From positions 1 through 31,859 of the forward strand of contig DASCPX010000119.1 in NCBI GenBank assembly GCA_036012755.1: a stretch of 31,859 nt of DNA, in the 5' to 3' direction. The DNA is from Myxococcota bacterium (GTDB lineage: Bacteria; Myxococcota_A; UBA796; CAJQPC01). The position numbers and the translations under genes were made by a program. The notes beneath the pieces are model-generated. The model ran no database searches. It was given only the letters and a program-made list of their open reading frames with translations, and was not told the DNA's origin. Each line of letters opens with the position of its first letter. The first letter of the stretch is position 1. This document shows positions 148-31,859 of the stretch, one piece after another.

Positions 148-1194
148 ATGTCGGGTTCCAACCGCTCCAGCGCTGCTGGATTCGAAGTCACTGTCGGCGG
201 CAAGACGTACAAGCAGGCTGCCGACCCGGGAACGAAGGGCGTTCAGCGCCTCACGATCGAAGACCACGTCGACATGGTCGACATGCTCACCCTTCGAATG
301 GGAGGCACGGAAGGCCAGGCCACCTGGGACTGGAGCATCGGCGACGATGTGACGGCCAAGATCGGTGAAGGAAGCAAGGAGCTCTTCAAGGGTCAGATCG
401 TCGCGATCGAGCCCAGCTACCAGGTCGAGGGCATCAGCCAGTGCAACATTCGCTGCCTCGACCCGATGCACAAGCTCGGGCGAGGTCGGATGACCCGCTT
501 CTTCGAGGACAAGAAGGACTCCGACGTCGTCTCCAAGGTCGCCGCCGCCGCTGGCGTGCCGGTGGGGACCTGCGAGGCCAGCGAAGAGACCCACCCCTAC
601 ATCCTGCAGCGCAACGAGAGCAACGTCGCGTTCCTGAAGCGGCTCGCCGCGCGGAACAACTACCTGCTGCGCATGGAGGACGGAAGCCTGGTCTTCAAGA
701 AGGCCCAGTTCTCGGGTTCGGTGTTCACCCTGGAGATGGGTGACAACCTGCGGAGCCTGCGTCTGTCCTTCAACACGGTGGACCAGGTCCAGAAGGTCGT
801 GGTCCGCGGCTGGGACATCATGACGAAGGAGCCCATCGTCGGCGAGGCCGACAGCGGCAAGGTCGACAAGATCGGCACCGGCGAGCTCGGCTGCGACATG
901 GCGAGCCAGTTTGGCGACTCCACGGCCTACGTCACCGACGTCCCGGTCTTCTCCCAGGGCGCCGCCAACCTCATCGCGAAGGTCGAGATGAACCGCCTCG
1001 CCCGGCAGTTCGCGCGAGGCAGCGCGACCATCCAGGGCGATGACAGCGTGCGCGCCGGGAACATGATCTCGATCGCCGGACTTCAGACAGGCGTCAACGG
1101 CGACTACTACGTGCTCGCGAGCCGGCACATCATCAGCAACCGCACGGGCTACTCGACCGAGTTCACCTTCTGCGGGACCTCCTACGGGGCCTGA
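148..1194 (+). CDS. Phage late control D / gp27-like baseplate hub of a contractile injection system (N-terminal half of VgrG/Afp8)
   Basis: 348 aa with motifs LFKGQIVAIEP, CLDPMHKLGRGR, DSDVVSKVA, QRNESNVAFLKRLAARN, VVVRGWD, GDDSVRAG, GDYYVLASRH, GYSTEF. No gp5 OB/beta-helix part. Lies next to gp25 and baseplate genes. Confidence 0.88.
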   Translation: MSGSNRSSAAGFEVTVGGKTYKQAADPGTKGVQRLTIEDHVDMVDMLTLRMGGTEGQATWDWSIGDDVTAKIGEGSKELFKGQIVAIEPSYQVEGISQCNIRCLDPMHKLGRGRMTRFFEDKKDSDVVSKVAAAAGVPVGTCEASEETHPYILQRNESNVAFLKRLAARNNYLLRMEDGSLVFKKAQFSGSVFTLEMGDNLRSLRLSFNTVDQVQKVVVRGWDIMTKEPIVGEADSGKVDKIGTGELGCDMASQFGDSTAYVTDVPVFSQGAANLIAKVEMNRLARQFARGSATIQGDDSVRAGNMISIAGLQTGVNGDYYVLASRHIISNRTGYSTEFTFCGTSYGA

Positions 1195-1276: not shown

Positions 1277-1294
1277 GCTCGTGTGGAGCGGAAG

Positions 1295-1687
1295 ATGTCG
1301 AAGCGCAAGGACTACCTGGGCACCGGATGGGCGTTCCCGTTCGGGTTCGCGTCCAGCACCGGCGGCGTCGAGATGTCCTCTGCCGAGGAGAACATCCGCC
1401 AGTGCATCGGCGTCATCCTCTCTACCCGACCCGGAGAGCGGCAGATGCTGCCCAAGTTCGGCTGTCGGCTGCACGAGTTGCTCTTTGCTCCGAACACTCG
1501 CGCGACCAGCGCCCTGATTGCTCACCACATTCGCGAAGCGTTGACGCGCTGGGAGCCGCGCATCGAGGTCATCGATGTCCGCGCCGAGCCTGAGCAGAAC
1601 GGCTCCGTGAACGTCGAGGTCGAGTACGTGATCCGGGCAACCAACGCCCGGCACGTGGCGAGCCACGTCATGTCCAGCACGCGCTGA
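1295..1687 (+). CDS. GPW/gp25 family baseplate protein (Afp9-like sheath initiator)
   Basis: LGTGWAFPF, IRQCIGVILSTRPGERQMLPKFGC, ALTRWEPRIEV. GGAG at 1285-1288 favours ATG 1295. Confidence 0.93.
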   Translation: MSKRKDYLGTGWAFPFGFASSTGGVEMSSAEENIRQCIGVILSTRPGERQMLPKFGCRLHELLFAPNTRATSALIAHHIREALTRWEPRIEVIDVRAEPEQNGSVNVEVEYVIRATNARHVASHVMSSTR

Positions 1688-1698
1688 AGGCGGAGACG

Positions 1699-4600
1699 AT
1701 GCCGATCACCCCTCCGAATCTCGACGACCGTCGCTACGAGGACATCGTGGCCGAGGCCCGGTCCTTGATCCCCCAGTACTGCCCGGAGTGGACGAACCTC
1801 AACGACGCCGACCCCGGAATGACCCTCGTCCAGCTCTTCGCCTGGATGACGGAGATGACGATCTACCGGCTCAACCGGGTCCCGGACAAGACCTACATCC
1901 ACTTCCTGAACTTCATCGGCGAGGAGCGCAAGCCCGCTCGTCCCGCCGTCACGCCGTTGACCTTCCTTCTTCGCGCCGACCGCCCTGTCGAGGTTCCGGC
2001 GTTCACGCGCACGGCGACTCGCCAGCGCGAGGGCCACCCGGCGCTGGACTTCCTGACGTCGCAGGGGCTCACCGTCCACGACGCGACCATCACCCGGCTG
2101 ATGTCCGTGCGTGGTGGTCAGCGTCCGGCGGTCCGGGAGCTTCCCTTCACCTACCTCGAGGACCACTCGACAGCCCTGACCTTCGCCGGCGGCGCGGGCA
2201 TCCCCGTCTTCGACGTCGACCCCATGGCATTTGGCCAGGATGCCTACACGCCTCACCAGTTCCTGTACGTCGGCCACGACGACTTCCGGCTCATGGACTT
2301 CGAACCGGAGGAGGGCCAGCGCCTCGGGCGGCTCCGCATCCGCCGAGCGGGCAAGAGCGATCCGCTGTCCATCGTGAACTTCTTCGTCTGGGAGTACCCG
2401 ACCGACCGTGGCTGGGTCCGCATCCAGAGCGACCGCGAGGCCAAGGACCAGCTCGGCATGCCCGAGCTGGCGCTGATGACCGCCCTGCCGAAGATCCGCC
2501 CCGTGGAGTCCTTTGGTGTCGGCGAGCACGTCTTCGCCAAGCCAGCCTCCGTCGCGGACCAGAAGTGGTGGATCCGGGGGCGCCTCGACTACGAGGCCTG
2601 GCTCGCCGCGCGCATGGAGGGTCTGCCCGACCCCGACAACCCCAGCTCCCAGGACCCCGGGGACCTCGAGGTCACCTGGCACGACGATCGCGGTGGCCAG
2701 GTCCGCCCGCTGAACAACTGGGACGTCCGCCCTGCCGGTCGGGCCCTCGAGTTCTTCCTGCAGGACCTTCCGCCGGTTCGTGGTGGCTGGTCGATCCGCT
2801 TCGCCATGGTCGACCGCAGCCTGCCCGCCGGCCGCACCGGCTACTTCCCGACCTATCGCTGGTACTACCGTCGAGGCGATCTCTGGGAGGAGGTGCCAGA
2901 GGAGCAGGTCCGCGTGGACGGCACCGAGATGGTCATCACCGGCCCGCTCACCGACATGGCCACGGACGGCTACAACCTGCGGGCGGAGCGCATCCAGACC
3001 GTCTTCTTGCGGGGCTTCATCCCCGACCTCGAGCTGGACCTCTCATGGCTCCGTCCCGTCGAGCTCCACATGCTGGCTGGCGAGGAGCCGAAGCGCGCCA
3101 CCGTGCTGGCGAACGACGAGGGCCCCTGGTCGCCTTGGCAGGTCAACGCAGCCGTGCAGCCGACGATCGGCCGGAAGTGGTTCATCGGCTCCGACCTCTT
3201 CGAGAACCGCCGCCAGGCAGAGGTGCTTGTCGAGATCGAGATCGGCTTCGACATGAACGGAGAAGAGGTCGCCGAGCCCGCCGACGACTACCTCCTGCAG
3301 ATGACCTACCGCGCAGAGGACAACTGGCGCGTGGTCTTCTCCCCCGACAAGCTCTACACCGGCTTCACCTTCGCGAAGATCGACGAAGAAGGCGCCAAGA
3401 AGGCCGGTCGTCGACGGGTCCGGATCGTCATCGACCCCCCCGAGCAGCTCAAGGGGCTCGCCCGCCACACCGTCGGAGACATCGAGACCACCTGGCTTCG
3501 CCTGGAGCTCATCAAGTCGAACCTGACCGGAGTGGACAAGAAGAAGAACAGCCACCCCATCGTCCCGCGCATCCACAAGGTCAGCCTCGGCGTCAACAAG
3601 ACGCTCGGTGATGGCACCTACGAGCAGCCGATGCCGCACCCGCTGATGGCGCAGGTGGACCACCGCGAGCACAACCGGCGCCTCTCTCGCTGCGTGACCC
3701 GGGCCGCCGGACGCCTCTCCGAGGTCCATCCCTACTTCCCCTTCGTCGATCTCGACCAGGATGGGCTGTCGCTCTATATGCAGTTCGACAAGCCCCTCCC
3801 GCGGGGTGAACGCCACGCCATCCACTTCCGCTGTCGTGGCGAGGCCTTCCTGCCAGAGGGTGTAGGCGTCGACTGGGAGATCCTTGAGCGCCGCCAGCAC
3901 GGGCGCACTGCGTGGCGTCGCCTCGTATCCAGCCGAACCGCGGACGAAGACGCCGTGGATGTCTACAAGCTGGAGCGCACGGGAGAGCTCGAGTTCGCCC
4001 TGCCGGACATTCCGCCCGTGCCAGAGGACGGCTTCTGGCTGCGCGCCCGGGTGGCGATGCCCGCCGGAATGGAGGCCGACCAGCTGCCGGCCTTCCCGCC
4101 GATCACGCACCTGATGCTCAACACCGTCGACGTGGTCAATCTCGAGACCATCACCCAGGAGCGCTTCAGCGGGCTCGGGGTACCGAACCAGGTCCTCGAG
4201 CTGCGCGAGCACCCCATCTTCATCCACCCCGGCGAGCGCGACCAGCAGGCCTTCCGGCGCCCGGAGCTCTTCACCGACGCGGCGGTCACGGTCGAGTACG
4301 CGGACGGGACTCGGGAGCCCTGGTACAGGGTCGAGGATCTGTTGACGGCCGCCAAGGACGACCCTGTCTACACGGTGGACTCGGTCGACGGCACCTTGCA
4401 CTTCGGCAACGGGATCCGGGGCCGCATGCTGCCGGTCGGCACCAACAACATCCTCATCGATGTCTACCGGCGGGTCCCCGGGGCTGTCGGCAACGTGGGC
4501 GCCGGAGAGGTGACCGTCTGTGACGGCTTCGCCGACCGGGTCAAGGTCGTGAACCTGCTCCCTGCCACCGGCGGGCGCGACGCGGAGACCATCGACGAGA

Positions 4601-5235
4601 TCATCCGCCGGGCCCCGTCCCTGCTCACGTCCCGCGACCGGGCGGTCACGCGCCAGGACTTCGAGATCATCGCGATGGAGGCCAGCGGCGAGGTCGCCCG
4701 TGCTGCCTGTCCAGGCACGATGGGGCGCGACGGCACCGTCCAGGTCGTCATCCTCCCCCACCGTCGAGAGGGTGAGATCACTCCGGATCCCTTCCTCTCG
4801 AGCGGACTCCGCGACCACGTCGAGCGCTACCTGACCCGGCGCTGTCTCATCAACATCGAGCCCAAGGTGCGCCTCGCGACGTTCTTGCCGATCGACGTCA
4901 GCGTCACGCTTCGGCTGCGCCCGAACGCCAACCAGCTCGTGGTGCGCGAGGACGCCGAGTGGTGGGTCGAGTCCTTCCTCGATCCATACGACGGAGGCAT
5001 CGACGGCGAGGGCTGGCCCTTCGGCGGCACGCTCTACGCCCAGGACTTCGCGCGCATGGTCTCGGACATCTACGAGGTCCGCCACGTCGTCGATGTCCAG
5101 CTCTACGACGTCTCGGCCAACGTCCGGGGTCCTGCGGGCTGGGAGGAGGGCGAGGGGACCAAGGAGCTGCCTCTCGATCACCATGACCTCTTCGTCATCC
5201 GCCGTGTCCGCATCAAGAGCGAGGAAGGCGCTTGA
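1699..5235 (+). CDS. Baseplate wedge/assembly protein (gp6/J, Afp11-like), 1178 aa
   Basis: N-terminal PNLDDRRYEDIVAEARSLIPQYCPEWTNLNDADPGMTLVQLFAW; C-terminal LHFGNGIRG, PATGGRDAET, RDRAVTRQDFE, GWPFGGTLY. Confidence 0.93.
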   Translation: MPITPPNLDDRRYEDIVAEARSLIPQYCPEWTNLNDADPGMTLVQLFAWMTEMTIYRLNRVPDKTYIHFLNFIGEERKPARPAVTPLTFLLRADRPVEVPAFTRTATRQREGHPALDFLTSQGLTVHDATITRLMSVRGGQRPAVRELPFTYLEDHSTALTFAGGAGIPVFDVDPMAFGQDAYTPHQFLYVGHDDFRLMDFEPEEGQRLGRLRIRRAGKSDPLSIVNFFVWEYPTDRGWVRIQSDREAKDQLGMPELALMTALPKIRPVESFGVGEHVFAKPASVADQKWWIRGRLDYEAWLAARMEGLPDPDNPSSQDPGDLEVTWHDDRGGQVRPLNNWDVRPAGRALEFFLQDLPPVRGGWSIRFAMVDRSLPAGRTGYFPTYRWYYRRGDLWEEVPEEQVRVDGTEMVITGPLTDMATDGYNLRAERIQTVFLRGFIPDLELDLSWLRPVELHMLAGEEPKRATVLANDEGPWSPWQVNAAVQPTIGRKWFIGSDLFENRRQAEVLVEIEIGFDMNGEEVAEPADDYLLQMTYRAEDNWRVVFSPDKLYTGFTFAKIDEEGAKKAGRRRVRIVIDPPEQLKGLARHTVGDIETTWLRLELIKSNLTGVDKKKNSHPIVPRIHKVSLGVNKTLGDGTYEQPMPHPLMAQVDHREHNRRLSRCVTRAAGRLSEVHPYFPFVDLDQDGLSLYMQFDKPLPRGERHAIHFRCRGEAFLPEGVGVDWEILERRQHGRTAWRRLVSSRTADEDAVDVYKLERTGELEFALPDIPPVPEDGFWLRARVAMPAGMEADQLPAFPPITHLMLNTVDVVNLETITQERFSGLGVPNQVLELREHPIFIHPGERDQQAFRRPELFTDAAVTVEYADGTREPWYRVEDLLTAAKDDPVYTVDSVDGTLHFGNGIRGRMLPVGTNNILIDVYRRVPGAVGNVGAGEVTVCDGFADRVKVVNLLPATGGRDAETIDEIIRRAPSLLTSRDRAVTRQDFEIIAMEASGEVARAACPGTMGRDGTVQVVILPHRREGEITPDPFLSSGLRDHVERYLTRRCLINIEPKVRLATFLPIDVSVTLRLRPNANQLVVREDAEWWVESFLDPYDGGIDGEGWPFGGTLYAQDFARMVSDIYEVRHVVDVQLYDVSANVRGPAGWEEGEGTKELPLDHHDLFVIRRVRIKSEEGA

Positions 5236-6329
5236 ACGGGCCCCAGCTGCCGGTCCCCTCTGGCAAGGCCCTCCCGGCCGTGCCGGGGGACTTCCTCCAC
5301 GTCGAGACCGTGGTGAAGGTCGGGTACCCGGCGCGCCACGCCCGGACCTACCTGCGCCGGAACCTGGGCAATCGCATCCAGATCCAGCTGGTCGAGGCCA
5401 AGCGCGGCGAAAAGGTCGGCCACGTGAGGGCAGCGCAGATCAACCCCGCCGCCGGCGGAGATCCGGTCTTCATCAGGGCCATGCGCTGCCTCCCCGATGG
5501 GTCGCCGGCGAGCTTGTTCATCCCGGATGACCTCGTCGACATCAAGGCAGAGCTGATCACGGTCGACGGACGTCCTCCCCCTCCGCTCGATCCGGGAGAC
5601 GAGGTCGTCCTCCACGTCCCGGTCAGGAGCTACCTGCGGTTCTTGCCGGGCGCCTTCCAGGGCGGTATGCCGACCCGCCGCCGCGACATCGTCAAGGCCG
5701 ACGAGGTCAGCGCGCGGCGCTGGAGCCACCAGGACGAGGTCACCGCGACCGAGGTCCGCGGGGTGGACACCGACACCATGCGGCGGCTGCTGTTCATCTT
5801 CCAGCACCAGATGACCACGGTGCTCGATCGGATCACCGAGATCCCCTCGCTCACGGACCCGCTGACATGCGATCCCAGGTTCCTGTCCTGGATCGCGAGC
5901 TGGGTCGGCTTCACCCTGGACGAGGGCCTCCCGCTGCACCAGCAGCGCGAGCTCGTCCGTCGCGCGATCCGGCTCTACCGGACTCGCGGGACGCGGGGTG
6001 GGCTCGAGGAGATGATCAAGGTCCTCACGGCTGCCCCGGTCAGCGTCTCGCCCAGGGAGAAGCCCCAGCCTTTCGTGCTCGGGGCGGCGACCCTCGCCGG
6101 TGGCGGCACTCCCAGCGAGCGCTACCTCAACGACGAGCCCCCCGCCCACTACCTCTACCGGGCAGAGCGGGCCGCAATCAACTTCTTTGCCCTGGTGCTG
6201 GAGCGGCGCGACCGCTTCGACCAGCGCTTCCGCCAGCGGGGGCCCGGTGTGCTCAAGCGCATCGCCCAGGTCGTGACCAACGAGCGGCCCGCCCACGTCA
6301 CCTTCACCATCCGCTTCGACGAGGAGTGA
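5232..6329 (+). CDS. Phage tail protein I-like baseplate subunit with ~130-aa N-terminal extension
   Basis: YLRFLPGAFQ, DPLTCDPRFLSWIASWVG, RRAIRLYRTRGTRGGL, terminal RPAHV. TTG start overlaps the upstream TGA. Confidence 0.87.
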   Translation: MNGPQLPVPSGKALPAVPGDFLHVETVVKVGYPARHARTYLRRNLGNRIQIQLVEAKRGEKVGHVRAAQINPAAGGDPVFIRAMRCLPDGSPASLFIPDDLVDIKAELITVDGRPPPPLDPGDEVVLHVPVRSYLRFLPGAFQGGMPTRRRDIVKADEVSARRWSHQDEVTATEVRGVDTDTMRRLLFIFQHQMTTVLDRITEIPSLTDPLTCDPRFLSWIASWVGFTLDEGLPLHQQRELVRRAIRLYRTRGTRGGLEEMIKVLTAAPVSVSPREKPQPFVLGAATLAGGGTPSERYLNDEPPAHYLYRAERAAINFFALVLERRDRFDQRFRQRGPGVLKRIAQVVTNERPAHVTFTIRFDEE

Positions 6330-6330
6330 G

Positions 6331-7269
6331 ATGAGCGCCGAATTCTCCGTGCTGTCCCGCCTGAACCCCTTCGAGGGGCTCTGTCTCACCAGCCGCGACC
6401 TGCTCGATGAGCAGACCTACCACCGCAAGAGCCTCCATCGGCACACGCTGTACCTGCACGGCCACGGCATCGTGCAGGGGCTGCAGGTCGAACTCGAGAA
6501 GCGCAAGACCAAGTACGTCGCCATCCTCCAGGCTGGCTACGGCATCACGCGCCTGGGTCAGGGGGTGGCCCTGACCGAGCCCGGAGCGGTCCCGCTCGAG
6601 GTCCCCAAGAAGGACGGCGAGTACATGCTCTGGCTCTTCCACGTCGAGGGGCCGGACGACGAGAGTCAGCGCCCGGTGTTCGACACCACGGAGACTCGCG
6701 AGACTCGCATCCGCGAGTTCTGCGCTCCGCGTCTGCACGCGGCGGAAGAGGACTACCCCGACGCCGTCGCGCTCACCCGCGTGAACGTGCGCCTCGGACG
6801 CATGGTCCAGGTGCTGTTGCCCGTCCCGCGTGCCGGACGCCAGGTCCGCGCGGCGGAGTCCTACCTCAAGCCCAGACTCATCGAGTTCATCCACTTCAAC
6901 AAGAAGGTGATGACCAACCTCTTCCGCACGGCGCTCCTCAAGGAGCTCGACCTGGCGGTGCTGAACTTCAGCTCGTCCCTCGTCTCGAGCGAGTTCATGC
7001 TCATCGAGGAGGGCACCAGCGACCGCGTGCTGTACCGGACGGCGGGGAGCCTGATCGGCTACGCCCACGAGTACTACAACGCCCTGCCCACGACGACGGC
7101 CCGGGTCACGAAGTTCACCGCCTTCGTCCGCCGTGTGCACGCCGAGCTTCCGGGCGATGACCAGGGCGACGAGGTCTGGCTGAAGTGGTTCGACAAGTTC
7201 GAGCGCCTGCTCCAGCCCCTGGGGAAGATCAGCGACGAGCTCGAGAAGACTGTCGAAGCTCAGCGCTGA
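6331..7269 (+). CDS. CIS baseplate-attached protein: Afp13/TssK-type N-terminal domain plus helical C-terminal domain
   Basis: RLNPFEGLCLTSRDLLDEQTYHR...HGHGIVQGLQV...AGYGITRLGQ matches the eCIS fibre-base pattern (F.G..L...D...EQ.YH...HG.GIV.GL.V). Starts 1 nt after the previous stop. Confidence 0.7.
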   Translation: MSAEFSVLSRLNPFEGLCLTSRDLLDEQTYHRKSLHRHTLYLHGHGIVQGLQVELEKRKTKYVAILQAGYGITRLGQGVALTEPGAVPLEVPKKDGEYMLWLFHVEGPDDESQRPVFDTTETRETRIREFCAPRLHAAEEDYPDAVALTRVNVRLGRMVQVLLPVPRAGRQVRAAESYLKPRLIEFIHFNKKVMTNLFRTALLKELDLAVLNFSSSLVSSEFMLIEEGTSDRVLYRTAGSLIGYAHEYYNALPTTTARVTKFTAFVRRVHAELPGDDQGDEVWLKWFDKFERLLQPLGKISDELEKTVEAQR

Positions 7270-7319: not shown

Positions 7320-7769
7320 GTGCGCGCGTTCACCCTGGTAGAGCTGATGATCACCGTCGCCATCATCGGCATCCTCGCGGCGATCGCGATCCCGAACTTC
7401 ATGGAGATGCAGTACCGCGCCAAGCGGCAGGAGGTCTGGCTCAACGTCGACGGCATCGCCACGGCGCAGACGGCCTACGAGGCGGCCAACGACGAGTACG
7501 TCGACAACTGCGCCTCGAACCCGGCCGCGCCGCTGGGCAAGTACACCAAGGTCTGGCGCGAGGGGGACGCCGAGTGGACGGAGCTCGGCTGGCGCCCTGA
7601 CGGCGCCATGCGCTGTACCTGTTCGGCGAACGTGTTCGGCGGCGGTGACTGGTTCCGGGTCGACGGCGTCTGCGACGTGGACGACGACAACGACTTCTAC
7701 ACCCTGCGTTGGTACAGCGACCGCGCGTCGAGCCCAGGCTGGTTGATCCTGGATCCGAACACCTGCTGA
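7320..7769 (+). CDS. Type IV pilin / prepilin-type N-terminal methylation domain protein
   Basis: MRA|FTLVELMITVAIIGILAAIAIPNF; GGAGG upstream of GTG; several Cys in the head domain. Confidence 0.9.
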   Translation: MRAFTLVELMITVAIIGILAAIAIPNFMEMQYRAKRQEVWLNVDGIATAQTAYEAANDEYVDNCASNPAAPLGKYTKVWREGDAEWTELGWRPDGAMRCTCSANVFGGGDWFRVDGVCDVDDDNDFYTLRWYSDRASSPGWLILDPNTC

Positions 7770-8143
7770 AGTCCGCACTCCGCGATCATGGCCCCAGTCT
7801 CCGGGTGCTGGATCGTCACGGAGCCCCCCGGGCCGGTCTCGACGCGATCCAGCATTGCCGGGCACGCCTGCTCAGCCAGGACCGGGTCGTCGACTCCGAC
7901 CCAACTGGACTGCGGGGTCCCGACCCAGGTCCCGTTCACCTCCTTCAGGTTCTGCCAGGGGAGCACGTCCGCGTACCTCTCTGCGTGTTCGGGCGTCGGC
8001 TCGGTCCGTGTGCCCAGGCGGTACAGGCCAAGGACCAGGAGGCCCCCGATCCCCACGATCGCCGCGATGGTCAGGGTGTTCTTCGTCTTGGCCTTCGCGC
8101 GCTCGTCACGTCGTGCGCGCCGCTCGATGTCGTATGGGTCCAT
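7697..8143 (-). CDS. Hypothetical single-pass membrane protein
   Basis: Basic N-terminus, TM segment TLTIAAIVGIGGLLVLGLY, genome-like codon usage. 3' end overlaps the pilin gene by 73 nt. Confidence 0.7.
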   Translation of the reverse strand: MDPYDIERRARRDERAKAKTKNTLTIAAIVGIGGLLVLGLYRLGTRTEPTPEHAERYADVLPWQNLKEVNGTWVGTPQSSWVGVDDPVLAEQACPAMLDRVETGPGGSVTIQHPETGAMIAECGLQQVFGSRINQPGLDARSLYQRRV

Positions 8144-8166: not shown

Positions 8167-9075
8167 ATGCAGCCTCAAGGTCCCCAAGCCCAGACCATCC
8201 AGGTTCGGGTCCAGGTGATCGACGTCCGGTCGCAGACCCTCGACCTGATCCTGCCGACTTACCTCCCTGCGCGAGACCTGACCCAGCGTGTGGCGCGGGA
8301 CGCGGGGCTGGAGGCTTTCTGGGCGGACGGACGGCGACGGCTGTACTGGCTTCGCGCCCGCGGTCGCCTCATGAAGGACGAAGAGCGGCTGATGGACCTC
8401 GGCGTCGTCCCGAACGAGCTGATCCACCTCCTGCCGGAGCCCCCCGCCGGCTCCGGGGTCGTCGAGCAGCATCCCGAGTACCCGGAGAGCCTCGGCTACG
8501 CGGCCAGAGGCTCTCTCGCCCTGATCGGCTCGGTCATTGGTGTGCTGCTGTGGACGGTCGGCTGGGGCATCGCGCTCAGCATCGACAGGGGGCTGCTGAC
8601 GACGACGCTCCCGGGCCTTGGTCTTGGCCTGTTGTGCACTTCCCTGGCGCGCCACATCTTCGGCGGCGACGGCTGGCGCGCTCGGGTGGCTGCCCTCGGC
8701 ATGGCGCTGGCCGTGCTCACGGTGGCGCTCGCGATGCTCGCTCCCGTGCTGCTCGGCGAGGACCCGGCGCTGGTCTTCAGTCAGTCCGTGCCTGGGCTGG
8801 TCACGGCGCTCGCTGGGGTGCTGTTCGCCTGGCTCGCCTGGTGGGGTGCGGTGGAGCCACTGCAGAGGCTCGACAGGCCCGACGAGGTGCAGGCAGAGGT
8901 CGCGGCGGTCGTGGCCTGCGGCATCTGTGGGCAGGGGGTGGAGCCCCACGTGCGCATGGACTGCGCCTATGCCTGTGGAAAGGTCTTCCACGTCGGCTGC
9001 CACGAGGCGAGGAAGGCAGTCTTCCGCGGAGATCAGAAGACCTGCGAGGTCTGCGGGGCCCAGGTTCGGGGCTGA
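8167..9075 (+). CDS. EsaB/YukD-like ubiquitin-fold domain + 4 TM helices + C4HC3 (RING/PHD-like) zinc finger
   Basis: IQVRVQVIDVRSQTLDLILPTYLPARDL...RGRLMKDEERLMDLGVVPNELIHL fits a beta-grasp pattern; four hydrophobic segments; C-x2-C-x11-C-x3-C-x4-H-x2-C-x14-C-x2-C. Confidence 0.75.
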   Translation: MQPQGPQAQTIQVRVQVIDVRSQTLDLILPTYLPARDLTQRVARDAGLEAFWADGRRRLYWLRARGRLMKDEERLMDLGVVPNELIHLLPEPPAGSGVVEQHPEYPESLGYAARGSLALIGSVIGVLLWTVGWGIALSIDRGLLTTTLPGLGLGLLCTSLARHIFGGDGWRARVAALGMALAVLTVALAMLAPVLLGEDPALVFSQSVPGLVTALAGVLFAWLAWWGAVEPLQRLDRPDEVQAEVAAVVACGICGQGVEPHVRMDCAYACGKVFHVGCHEARKAVFRGDQKTCEVCGAQVRG

Positions 9076-10556: not shown

Positions 10557-10633
10557 GATCGCGCCGATTGCGGGGCCTCGAGCCCGGGGGTAACTTCGCG
10601 CCGCCGGATGGCACCTCCGGCGCGGAGCCCAAG

Positions 10634-12112
10634 ATGTCTCTCATCCTGCTCGCCACATTGCTCTCGAGCGACGCCGAGGCCCAGCAGGGCCGCGACGAGT
10701 TCGGCATCACCCTGTCGCTTGCGGGCGGGTGGTACGAGATCGACGACAACGAGAACCTGGGGTCCACCTGGGCTCTGAACCCCCGCATCGGGTACAGCCT
10801 CACGCGTCGGGTCATCGTCGAAGCCCAGACCGGCTACCACCAGGGCAAGACCTCGGCCTTCAACAACCGCTATGACGCCTTCACGCCGCGGCTGGACCTG
10901 CTGCTGGTGTTGACCCCCGAGTCCCGACTCCAGCCCTTCCTCGCGGCGGGCGGCGGCGCTGCCTACGTCCGGGTCAGCCGCGACCCGAACACTTGGTCCA
11001 CCGAGCCGATTCAAGGAACGGCCATCGGGAACTACAAGAACCCCGACACCGACACCCTCGTGAACGCCGGGCCCGGCATGATGATCAAGCTGGCCGGCGC
11101 GATGTCGCTGCGCTTCGACGCTCGGTGGATGATGACCATCGGCACAGAGCCACACGGCGCCAACGACCAGGACGTCTTCAACAACTGGGAGCTGACCGGC
11201 GGCTTCATGTTCCGTGCAGCCGAGCGCGGTCGGGATCGCGACCTCGACGGCATCCTCGACAAGGTCGACGAGTGCCCGGACGATCCCGAGGACTGGGACA
11301 CCTTCGAAGACCCCGACGGCTGCCCCGACTTCGACAACGACCAGGACGGCGTCCTCGATGTCGACGACGACTGCCCCCTCGATCCCGAGGACATGGACGG
11401 CTACGGCGACGAAGACGGCTGCCCAGAGGACGACAACGACCTCGACGGCATCGTGGACTGGGAAGACGAGTGCCCAGAAGACCGCGAGGACATGGACGGC
11501 TTCCGCGACGGGGACGGCTGCCCGGAGAACGACAACGATCGCGATGGCATCTGGGACCTCAACGACCGCTGCCCGAACCACCCAGAGGACATGGACGGCT
11601 GGGAGGACGAGGACGGCTGCGACGACACCGACAACGACTCAGACGGCATCGCGGACGTCGTGGATGCCTGCGCCAACGTGGCAGAGACCTACAACGGCTT
11701 CGAGGACTCCGACGGGTGCCCCGACGAGCTCCCGCCAGAAGTCGTCAGGTTCACCGGTGTCATTCGCGGCATCAACTTCGAGGTCGACAAGGCCAAGATC
11801 ACGGTCGGTTCCTACTTCATCCTCGACGAGGCCTCGGACGTGCTCATCCGGCACCCGGACCTGCGGCTGGAGATCCAGGGCCACACCGACAGCGACGGCT
11901 CGGACGAGTACAACTTCGACCTCTCCGATCGTCGGGCCGAGGCCGTCGTGCGCTACATGACCGGGAAGGGGGTCGACCCCTCACGCCTGACCTGGATGGG
12001 CTACGGCGAGAGCCGCCCGCTCATCCCCAACGACGACGAGGAGTCCAAGGCGGTCAACCGCCGCGTCGAGTTCCACATCGTCGAGCCGGAGCCCCTCACG
12101 GCGGACCAGTAG
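10634..12112 (+). CDS. OmpA family protein: OM beta-barrel + thrombospondin type-3-like repeats + OmpA C-terminal peptidoglycan-binding domain
   Basis: Signal MSLILLATLLSSDAEA; LQPFLAAGGG barrel strands; EIQGHTDSDG, LSDRRAEAV, GYGESRP, NRRVEF. GGAG before ATG 10634. Confidence 0.93.
   Translation: MSLILLATLLSSDAEAQQGRDEFGITLSLAGGWYEIDDNENLGSTWALNPRIGYSLTRRVIVEAQTGYHQGKTSAFNNRYDAFTPRLDLLLVLTPESRLQPFLAAGGGAAYVRVSRDPNTWSTEPIQGTAIGNYKNPDTDTLVNAGPGMMIKLAGAMSLRFDARWMMTIGTEPHGANDQDVFNNWELTGGFMFRAAERGRDRDLDGILDKVDECPDDPEDWDTFEDPDGCPDFDNDQDGVLDVDDDCPLDPEDMDGYGDEDGCPEDDNDLDGIVDWEDECPEDREDMDGFRDGDGCPENDNDRDGIWDLNDRCPNHPEDMDGWEDEDGCDDTDNDSDGIADVVDACANVAETYNGFEDSDGCPDELPPEVVRFTGVIRGINFEVDKAKITVGSYFILDEASDVLIRHPDLRLEIQGHTDSDGSDEYNFDLSDRRAEAVVRYMTGKGVDPSRLTWMGYGESRPLIPNDDEESKAVNRRVEFHIVEPEPLTADQ
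11234..11728 (+). repeat. Five 99-bp (33-aa) Asp-rich TSP3-like Ca-binding repeats
   Basis: D.D.DGI.D..D.CP...ED.DG..D.DGCP repeated five times. Confidence 0.9.
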
Positions 12113-30551: not shown

Positions 30552-30915
30552 ATGGCACTCGGCCTGTTGGGCCTTGTGGGTTGCCCCACCGCCCAGCCCA
30601 CGCCCGACCCACTCGCCGCTACGTCAGGGACCATCGAGTGGCGGATTCTGCGGATTGACGAGCGGGGGAGAGCTTCACTGCGACGCCGACCTGGCGGACG
30701 ACGCAACCGCCCTGCCGGGTGACGTCGCTGGGGCTTTCGAAAGCGTGTCGGTACACCCGGAGACCGTCCTAAGCGGCTGCGGAATCACACTCGATCAGGG
30801 GCTCAGCTGTTGGGGTGACTTGGTACGAACGCCTGCGAATGCCGACCTGCGGTGGGCAGAGTAGCGTCGAGGGTGAGCGCTACTCAGCCAAAAGGGCGTG
30901 CCTGACTTCGGAGCG
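30552..30915 (+). pseudogene. Relic of an RCC1/BLIP-II-like repeat lipoprotein
   Basis: MALGLLGLVGC lipobox in one frame; FCGLTSGGELHC and GCGITLDQGLSCWG in another; early stop at 30864. Confidence 0.5.
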
Positions 30916-31252
30916 CTGAACGCCGGCGCGGCATGATCGACTGAGGCTCGTCGGGCCGGCCCTCCGCGCTGAGCAGCGTGTCGAAGCAGTCCTCGGGAGG
31001 GCTGCGGCGGAAAGGGCGAGGGTGGCCGTCTCAAGCGGCTCTTCCTCCCCGGACCCGCAATGGCCCGACAGGGCCGCAGGGGCAATCCAGGGCGTGCGAC
31101 AAGGTCTGACAGAGACCACTCCCCGGCCCAGCAGTCCTCTGCCTCGTTAGGAGAAGAGCGGCGAGCCCAAGTTAAGGGGCCGCGAGCAGGTCGGCTGGTG
31201 GCCTGGACGAGACGCGGCGCCGGTCACAGGTTGTTCCGGACACCCTGGCCGG

Positions 31253-31859
31253 GTATCCCTCCGGCGAACCCAGGCCCGGCGGTTCAGGCGCGCTGGGATA
31301 GGCGCCGTGCCCGCCATGCAGCGGGCTCCAGCTCCAGGACGCGGTTGGCGGGCCAGGCGTTCAGCTGGGGCAGGACGTCGGTCAGGTACAGCCAGGGGTC
31401 GATGGCGTTGACCATGCAGGTACCAATCAAGGAGAACCAGGTCGCTGCGGTCTGCGCGCCTCCCTCGGAGCCCGCGAACATCCAGTTCTTTCGGCCAACG
31501 ACGGGTTGTCGAAGCAGCAACTCGCTGAGGTTGTTGTGCGCGGGGATGGCGCCGTTGTCGATGAACACGACCAGAGTGTCCCACTGGCGTAGTACGTAGT
31601 TCGCGGCCTTGGCCAGCGGCGAATTTGGGGGTTCGCTCAGGGTCAGCGCCTGACACCAAGCGCGGAATGCCTGAAGAATCGGCCAGGTCGTGGCCCTTCG
31701 TTCACGCGCCCGGTCGGCTGCAGACAACTCTCGGAAGCGCCGCTCCATCTGGAAGACCTCGCGGATGGTCTCCAGGGCGTGATGGACGTGGCGGGGGTCG
31801 GTGTCGCGTGCCTCCCAGAACTTGCGGCGGGCGTGGGCCCAGCAGCCGGCTCGAACCAC
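31253..31859 (-). mobile_element. IS66-family element, right part with probable terminal inverted repeat
   Basis: GTATCCCTCCGGCGAACCC at 31253 resembles IS66 GTAAGCGTCC..GAACC ends, 31 nt past the transposase stop. Confidence 0.75.
31284..31859 (-). CDS. tnpC: IS66 transposase TnpC, C-terminal part (5' end outside window)
   Basis: AGCWAHARRKF, LAKAANY, NNLSE, GRKNWMFAGSEGG, SLIGTC...DPWLYLTDVL. Confidence 0.92.
   Translation of the reverse strand: MVRAGCWAHARRKFWEARDTDPRHVHHALETIREVFQMERRFRELSAADRARERRATTWPILQAFRAWCQALTLSEPPNSPLAKAANYVLRQWDTLVVFIDNGAIPAHNNLSELLLRQPVVGRKNWMFAGSEGGAQTAATWFSLIGTCMVNAIDPWLYLTDVLPQLNAWPANRVLELEPAAWRARRLSQRA

Follow-up and report, generated by a model that had tools for sequence, protein, structure and literature searches.

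A ubiquitin-like domain fused to a membrane-anchored RING-like finger at the end of a Myxococcota CIS operon

Results

The CIS operon and its last gene

The window analysed here is a stretch of 31,859 nucleotides from a Myxococcota bacterium, which opens, on the forward strand, with baseplate genes of a contractile injection system (CIS), a machine related to phage tails. Pfam matches identified a GPD baseplate hub (148..1194), a gp25 baseplate wedge (1283..1687), a Baseplate J-like protein of 1178 aa with a large insertion (1699..5235) and a Tail_P2_I baseplate wedge protein (5232..6329). These are followed by U312 (6331..7269), a 312-aa baseplate-anchored protein recognised by synteny and profile, which has an eBAP/crown-like N-terminus and no fibre, and is 77% conserved end to end. 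The operon's last gene (8167..9075) encodes P0001, in which a ubiquitin-like (Ubl) domain, four transmembrane (TM) helices and a C4HC3 RING-like finger are fused. U312 normally lies just upstream of P0001, and is a candidate partner for it; in the window, the two are separated by a genus-level insertion (7320..8143) that synteny places outside the conserved operon, and which accounts for the 900 bp originally noted between the CIS and P0001. Its two open reading frames are a pilin-like gene (7320-7769, forward strand) and a 148-aa gene on the opposite strand (7697-8143), the start of which is only 23 bases from that of P0001; the insertion splits the operon. Elsewhere in the window, positions 10568-12112 encode an OmpA-family protein with a beta-barrel and TSP3 repeats, found near the fusion gene in only about 10 of 81 loci, and the ORF running from 31284 to the end (within 30574-31859) resembles by eye an IS66-type transposase.

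The upstream half of the operon in the source genome, comprising sheath, tube, Pvc16 and AAA genes, is on contig C87; away from this main operon, contig C5 (C5:1-3159) holds two tandem gp5 spike genes with a PAAR-like gene. Tandem gp5 spike pairs recur across the order. The full operon order was read in four relatives as Pvc16, sheath, tube, a 121-aa protein, second sheath, second tube, a long protein, CIS_tube-LysM, GPD hub, gp25, baseplate J, Tail_P2_I, U312 and P0001, with AAA-like and DUF4157-like genes (named by eye) diverging upstream. P0001 was the only scanned operon protein with a TM-grade hydrophobic segment, the scan having covered 13 of the 14 operon genes of genome G036 (the LysM-tube gene was not separately scanned) and five genes of G003.

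This arrangement is conserved. U312 was directly upstream of the P0001 gene in 58 of 80 homologous loci, and across an insert of <3 kb in a further five; gp25 was directly upstream in four, another CIS gene was nearby in three, and the contig ended in two. The remaining eight had no CIS gene within the fetched stretch, showing that the fusion gene is able to leave the operon, although these lineages (family f7) keep the CIS elsewhere. In four loci (L048, L077, L078 and L087), gp25 and the fusion gene have been relocated together outside the main CIS operon.

Domain architecture of P0001

P0001 is a 302-aa ORF (8167-9075, forward strand) without an internal stop, and its AlphaFold model (mean pLDDT 89, pTM 0.62) folds residues 10-90 as a beta-grasp, which is followed by four long helices and by a finger of strand-strand-helix build. 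The search returned 324 relatives, and P0001 was aligned with 118 of the 120 listed (119 rows). The original prediction of a Ubl domain, four TM helices and an eight-ligand finger within a single protein agrees with the ORF, the alignment and the model. The family is slow-evolving, and was single copy in 56 of 61 relatives' genomes.

The N-terminal domain (8188..8451, forward strand; residues 8-95) is a YukD-like beta-grasp Ubl, as assigned by Pfam, fold search and hhalign. Pfam YukD (PF08817) matched 119/119 aligned members, many of which already carry this annotation, with a best value of 2e-9; P0001 itself scored 6.5e-4, below the curated cut-off. Searching with the structural model matched residues 9-94 to ubiquitin-like folds (Z about 10), in line with the YukD/EsaB-like beta-grasp anticipated from the sequence, and the top Foldseek match was EccD (E 1.5e-5, at a low whole-chain TM-score). 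All these fold-search matches fell on the Ubl and none informs the finger, just as the database names of relatives, "EsaB/YukD family", reflect the Ubl alone. This domain is the most conserved part of the family, with 51 of 85 columns at 90% or above, a pattern which, alongside the absence of E1 described below, fits a binding surface. The domain was originally said to lack a terminal GG, which is correct, with the nuance that its relic tail, LLPEPPAG(95), lines up with the xxAG ending found on free bacterial Ubls, including FLYETAAG in the Ubl of family f9 and LQPEITAG in the non-CIS Ubl of genome G324. G95 was kept in 110 of 119 close members and, by eye, in approximately 17 of 27 distant ones.

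Four TM helices (residues 111-139, 143-164, 172-195 and 208-224; 8497..8838, forward strand) follow in the model. The TM2-TM3 loop is rich in basic residues, with 2.7 K/R against 0.2 D/E per sequence across the alignment, and the other two loops are not, which supports the predicted N-in/C-in topology. Hence the charge bias favours the earlier proposal that an even number of helices places both the Ubl and the finger in the cytoplasm.

The finger (8917..9054, forward strand), a C4HC3 zinc finger of the RING/PHD cross-brace type identified from motif, alignment and profiles, has the pattern C-x2-C-x11-C-x3-C-x4-H-x2-C-x14-C-x2-C exactly where it was first placed, and its eight predicted Zn ligands (C251, C254, C266, C270, H275, C278, C293 and C296) are invariant in 119/119 aligned homologues. 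C4HC3 was also retained in 24 of the 27 distant full-length relatives in a 50%-cluster library; of the other three, two have apparently frameshifted tails and one (P0133) a RING-H2-like motif. Profile comparisons do not separate the two fold classes: among 56 sequences searched at E<=1, where most matches were weak, zf-RING_2 matched 55, PHD 53 and Prok-RING_1 five. The best PDB match was the Pygopus PHD over the N-terminal half, and the RING EL5 over the whole finger; the model places a ten-residue helix after the sixth ligand, and several relatives end the finger with CPxC. PHD fingers have an aromatic residue two positions before the seventh ligand, which is missing from P0001 and its relatives, where position 291 is R/S/K/N. 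The features through which RINGs bind E2s, namely an Ile, a helix Trp, the Pro of CP-x-C and a following Arg, are only partly present, as Ile253 is conserved, the Trp is absent, and the Pro and following Arg are absent from the core clade. We call the finger RING-like because of the E1/E2 ancestry set out below, and because C4HC3 is the ligand order described for prokaryotic RINGs (PMC11354881).

Distribution and co-occurrence with the CIS

P0001 relatives come mostly from metagenome-assembled genomes labelled Myxococcota or Deltaproteobacteria, with labels that often conflict; the host group is one that we take to be the GTDB class and order UBA796. A class-wide search (E<=1e-15) found the fusion in 138 of the order's 152 genomes but in none of 28 others, and in a phylum sample of 251 genomes it matched 30 order genomes, with one weak match outside (G084). 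Across the relatives' genomes, U312 was present in 55 of 61, and the five without P0001 also lacked U312 and baseplate J, with four lacking the hub. Fourteen order genomes lack the fusion: U312 had no match in 11 of them and only a distant one, from another CIS lineage, in two, while one exception (G305, in 1850 contigs) had a close U312 and a sheath. The fusion gene has thus largely been lost together with the CIS, in what amounts to a handful of losses, as kin genomes are not independent. This bears out the co-occurrence with CIS genes that the original prediction had made a check on itself. A chance adjacency of the P0001 gene to the CIS was rejected. Two order genomes without the typical CIS have a divergent one, which ends in a degenerate Ubl-TM-finger fusion in G180 (L192:5918-6781) and in a weakly similar TM ORF in G300 (L267:2334-2945).

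A split cassette in two sister families

In G084, the weak match lies 2.7 kb past the U312 homologue of a different CIS. In two other families of the class, f8 and f9, eBAP is followed in this slot by four genes, for E1, a 4TM-finger protein, a free YukD-like Ubl and E2, and these operons also contain sheath, tube and hub genes. The E1 matches ThiF at 1e-35 to 1e-42, the E2 matches UQ_con above its cut-off and has HPN and Cys, and catalytic Cys motifs are intact. The order E1-TM-finger-Ubl-E2 was found in 14 of 15 f8 genomes and in 2/2 f9 genomes (in G137, over two contigs), whereas the remaining f8 genome (G377) had neither an E2 nor an eBAP match; 16 metagenome loci, which overlap the f8/f9 genomes, show the same pattern where they are long enough. 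In these 16 genomes the cassette lay directly behind eBAP in ten, across a 6.6-kb insert in one and at a contig end in two; it was apart from the CIS, within the fetched stretch, in the other three, which counts against the cassette-CIS link. A JAB motif occurs 1.7 kb downstream of the cassette, in f9 only. Hence the E1 and E2 genes that had been sought alongside P0001 share its slot in the sister families.

Both halves of P0001 are homologous to proteins of this cassette. Using hhalign, residues 120-302 matched the free TM-finger (P=96.8, E=2.5e-10) and residues 6-96 the free Ubl (P=93.7, E=1.9e-7). In bit scores, the CIS-linked Ubls of f9 come nearest to the fused Ubl (24-27 bits), followed by non-CIS Ubls (10-14 bits) and that of f8 (6-7 bits), the last being a loose end, as f8 is the sister lineage on the tree described below. 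All eight ligand positions are Cys or His in the f9 finger, whereas the f8 finger has lost ligands 2, 5 and 6, such that its first Zn site has decayed and its second is kept. A Lys within the first 12 residues was found in 19 of 52 free TM-finger proteins, and no conserved acceptor lysine stands out.

Several further features of these loci were seen. The free Ubl of f8 (L188:8644-8934 and 13 other f8 genomes) is 93-99% identical between genomes, a degree of conservation like that of ubiquitin, and ends EHIPA, with no Gly; CBASS conjugation tolerates an Ala at the C-terminus (PMC10449767). The Ubl of G084 has an extension after AAG, which a JAB could in principle trim. In f9 (L187:3338-5628 and L236:1484-3773), the cassette is followed by an opposite-strand FHA-TM-lytic transglycosylase-like gene, named by eye, and the JAB-motif gene. 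Other Myxococcota CIS operons (L194-L205) have FHA and vWA-TM-FHA genes directly after eBAP, placing another membrane-linked module in that slot.

Loss of the conjugating enzymes and origin of the fusion

Cognate enzymes are almost absent where the fusion is found. A cognate E2 profile, which replaced Pfam searches for which no control matched (UQ_con and Prok-E2_A), recovered its positive controls in 14/15 f8 and 2/2 f9 genomes, and gave one weak match among the 152 order genomes; across 301 phylum genomes, it matched eight f8/f9 genomes, and weakly once more. Among the 61 relatives' genomes, UQ_con matched none (with no positive control matched) and Prok-E2_B two. Cognate E1 (E<=1e-30) was found in one of the 152 order genomes, and overall in the same 16 f8/f9 genomes plus G324 and G371, where it belongs to stand-alone, non-CIS operons of Ubl, E1, JAB, membrane protein and E2 (L263:7937-13752 and L264:1402-6601), with a Ubl ending QPEITAG and a short extension. 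The source genome had no E2, and its sole E1-like match was MoeB-type (28%), adjoining the genome's housekeeping JAB. Taking a cognate E1 and E2 in the genome as the mark of an active RING E3, this pair occurs in f8 and f9, and in at most one of 152 genomes of the fused order. Similarly, a conjugatable Ubl would end in a free Gly or Ala, or come with a peptidase that uncovers one, whereas that of P0001 is N-terminal and runs on into the TM part, and no JAB gene was found in its operon. The originally suggested membrane E3-like component of a ubiquitin-type system is therefore upheld as ancestry, from the split cassette of the sister families, but probably not as a present activity, the cognate E1/E2 not having been found in 151 of the order's 152 genomes.

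For the C-terminal region of baseplate J, a tree of 41 rows (rooted on other Myxococcota CIS; locus L195, which gave no usable segment, was left out) returned the topology (f9,(f8,fused)), with support of 100/98 and 97/93; the position of G180, on a very long branch, was disregarded. As the fused form nests within the split ones, the split arrangement is ancestral, and the fusion appears to have arisen once. We are accordingly confident that P0001 originated when the free Ubl was joined to the N-terminal end of the 4TM-RING from its own cassette, with loss of E1 and E2.

Discussion

The P0001 gene is real and conserved, and from its sequence and context we infer a function as a CIS membrane component descended from a ubiquitin-like ligase cassette. 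Membership of the CIS is very probable, which upholds the CIS link in the adaptor role originally offered as an alternative, while the adaptor role itself is a candidate. The two original alternatives, ligase-like component and CIS adaptor, prove to be parts of a single history. We assign a probability of about one half to the more specific reading, that P0001 is the docking or trigger protein of the CIS. A membrane-anchored Ubl and finger that remain under strong selection without conjugating enzymes point to a binding platform, for which the adjacent baseplate is the natural ligand; P0001 appears to have lost ligase activity and to work in this manner. The free Ubl gene of a CIS-linked cassette of E1, RING E3, Ubl and E2 was very probably fused onto the cassette's 4TM-RING gene, with E1 and E2 being lost, and P0001 would now be non-catalytic. 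Its four helices would anchor it in the inner membrane, where the cytoplasmic Ubl and finger would bind the baseplate, most likely through U312 or a wedge protein, and this binding would dock the CIS at the membrane and permit firing. Two precedents are consistent with such a role: the gene for the membrane protein CisA sits just downstream of baseplate genes, and firing requires CisA (PMC12237407), and YukD is a non-conjugated assembly factor (PMC12637312). The likeness of U312 to a docking subunit comes from one weak match, to the tCIS crown protein 7b5h (E=0.018), and from the reported resemblance of eBAP3 and Tail_P2_I to TssK/TssG (PMC12923769). P0001 has no periplasmic or outer-membrane part, and so could not by itself form a T6SS-like channel.

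The ancestral function of the cassette is a more tentative matter. It is possible, though doubtful, that the eukaryote-style E1-E2-RING cascade conjugated the Ubl to a CIS membrane protein or to the baseplate, licensing docking and firing, and that the fusion hard-wired the conjugated state, making E1 and E2 dispensable. A bolder step would be that the cascade attached the Ubl to the TM-RING itself, such that the fusion copies this product. It is the lack of a conserved acceptor lysine in the free TM-finger that keeps our confidence in the replacement of conjugation by fusion low.

Other roles at the same position deserve weighing against docking. Synteny and co-occurrence would fit equally well were P0001 an accessory for baseplate assembly or quality control at the membrane, cargo loading or the timing of release; lambdoid tail assembly uses a Ubl (TAPI) and a JAB protein (PMC1779556), and spike genes at a second locus mean that assembly must be coordinated. 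Yet a chaperone would need no four TM helices, and P0001 occupies the position of the membrane adaptor CisA (PMC12237407), making these roles unlikely. The finger and Ubl might instead link the CIS to a downstream kinase/FHA module, with stress sensing switching the CIS on. By motif inspection, 18 of 81 loci have an FHA-like gene downstream of the fusion, and 12 have one resembling a Ser/Thr kinase; the slot after eBAP in other Myxococcota CIS holds FHA-domain genes. But the window and most loci lack this module, whereas 138 of 152 genomes carry the fusion, and such a signalling adaptor seems decidedly unlikely.

The evidence on conjugation bears on whether P0001 could still be an active membrane E3 served by an E2 that escaped detection, or a pro-protein from which cleavage after G95 would free a conjugatable Ubl. 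The intact ligands in prokaryotic RING order, the retained Ile253 and G95, and the JAB-MoeB pair in the source genome are what such an enzyme or precursor might be expected to leave. They have to be set against the near absence of cognate E1 and E2, the separate non-CIS operon that accounts for the single order genome with a cognate E1, the missing E2-binding residues of the finger and the proline-rich tail of the Ubl, which make this highly improbable. Less credible still is that the CIS injects P0001 as cargo into eukaryotic cells to mimic ubiquitin/RING, as eukaryote-like folds in a CIS operon could suggest; its four TM helices, its single copy, its slow evolution and its descent from a bacterial cassette all point to a resident component rather than a variable cargo.

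If docking through P0001 is correct, it is a candidate explanation of the way in which a diderm CIS without a fibre or a recognisable T6SS membrane complex reaches a membrane. To our knowledge, bacterial operons of E1, E2, RING E3 and Ubl have been predicted for years with no known substrates, and those bacterial Ubl systems that have been tested (CBASS, Bil and Bub) were described without a RING E3. The fixed position of the cassette in a CIS operon, at its baseplate end, cuts the substrate candidates to a dozen co-encoded proteins, from which the fusion singles out one, the TM-RING itself. As the sister families keep the full enzyme kit at the same spot, there is a hint that protein tagging controls the CIS; were this true, ubiquitin-like control of an injection machine, and then its replacement by a fusion, would both be visible in genomes.

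The kinds of component are known, as tri-ligase Ubl systems and CIS membrane adaptors, and it is their union that is new within the literature searched. We found no paper on a CIS-linked E1/E2/RING cassette or a Ubl-RING fusion, although Burroughs 2011/2012 or their supplements may list such operons. Within the 12 of 15 supplementary files covered of a published census, neither UQ_con nor YukD appears among the 22,287 domain hits that supplementary file 4 gives for eCIS operons (PMC8213781), and hence the CIS-Ubl link is not in the standard catalogue.

Prokaryotic tri-ligase Ubl systems were reportedly set out by Burroughs, Iyer and Aravind. Such systems, comprising E1, E2, RING E3, JAB and Ubl, are already described (PMC7159879), and their part list is that of the f8/f9 cassette; the C4HC3 order and the loss of one Zn site in some prokaryotic RINGs, comparable to the f8 finger, are likewise on record (PMC11354881, PMC7159879). 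The difference is that the f8/f9 cassette ends a CIS operon, whereas the links described in those accounts are to FtsH ternary and Pup systems, and that in the fused order the Ubl is joined to the TM-RING and E1/E2 are gone. Ubl chemistry also acts on phage-tail proteins in Bil and in lambdoid TAPI/TAPK (PMC11601596, PMC1779556); however, Bil is described as attacking foreign tails with no E3, while here the Ubl kit, accompanied by a RING partner, belongs to a tail-derived operon of the cell itself.

Non-conjugated Ubls serve as assembly modules in EccD and YukD/EsaB, EccD being a Ubl joined by a linker to a TM bundle (PMC12637312, PMC1779556), but with about 12 TMs and no finger, in contrast to the four TMs and finger of P0001. 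An identity as a T7SS EccD/EsaB was rejected, given the four TMs, the absence of T7SS genes from the loci and the recurrent CIS neighbours. Streptomyces CisA (SCO4242), like P0001, is a membrane protein encoded just downstream of CIS baseplate genes, is needed for contraction and is a predicted binder of Cis11 (PMC12237407). It differs in being a bitopic protein of a monoderm that combines an external domain with a cytoplasmic part that is disordered, whereas P0001 has four TMs, a Ubl and a Zn finger. The tCIS is anchored to the thylakoid by a TM helix of Cis13 itself (PMC8894136), whereas P0001 is a separate membrane protein. The role proposed for P0001 resembles the docking of the T6SS through TssK and TssL/TssM, as a link between baseplate and membrane, but with P0001 as the one membrane protein that the TM scan found in its operon.
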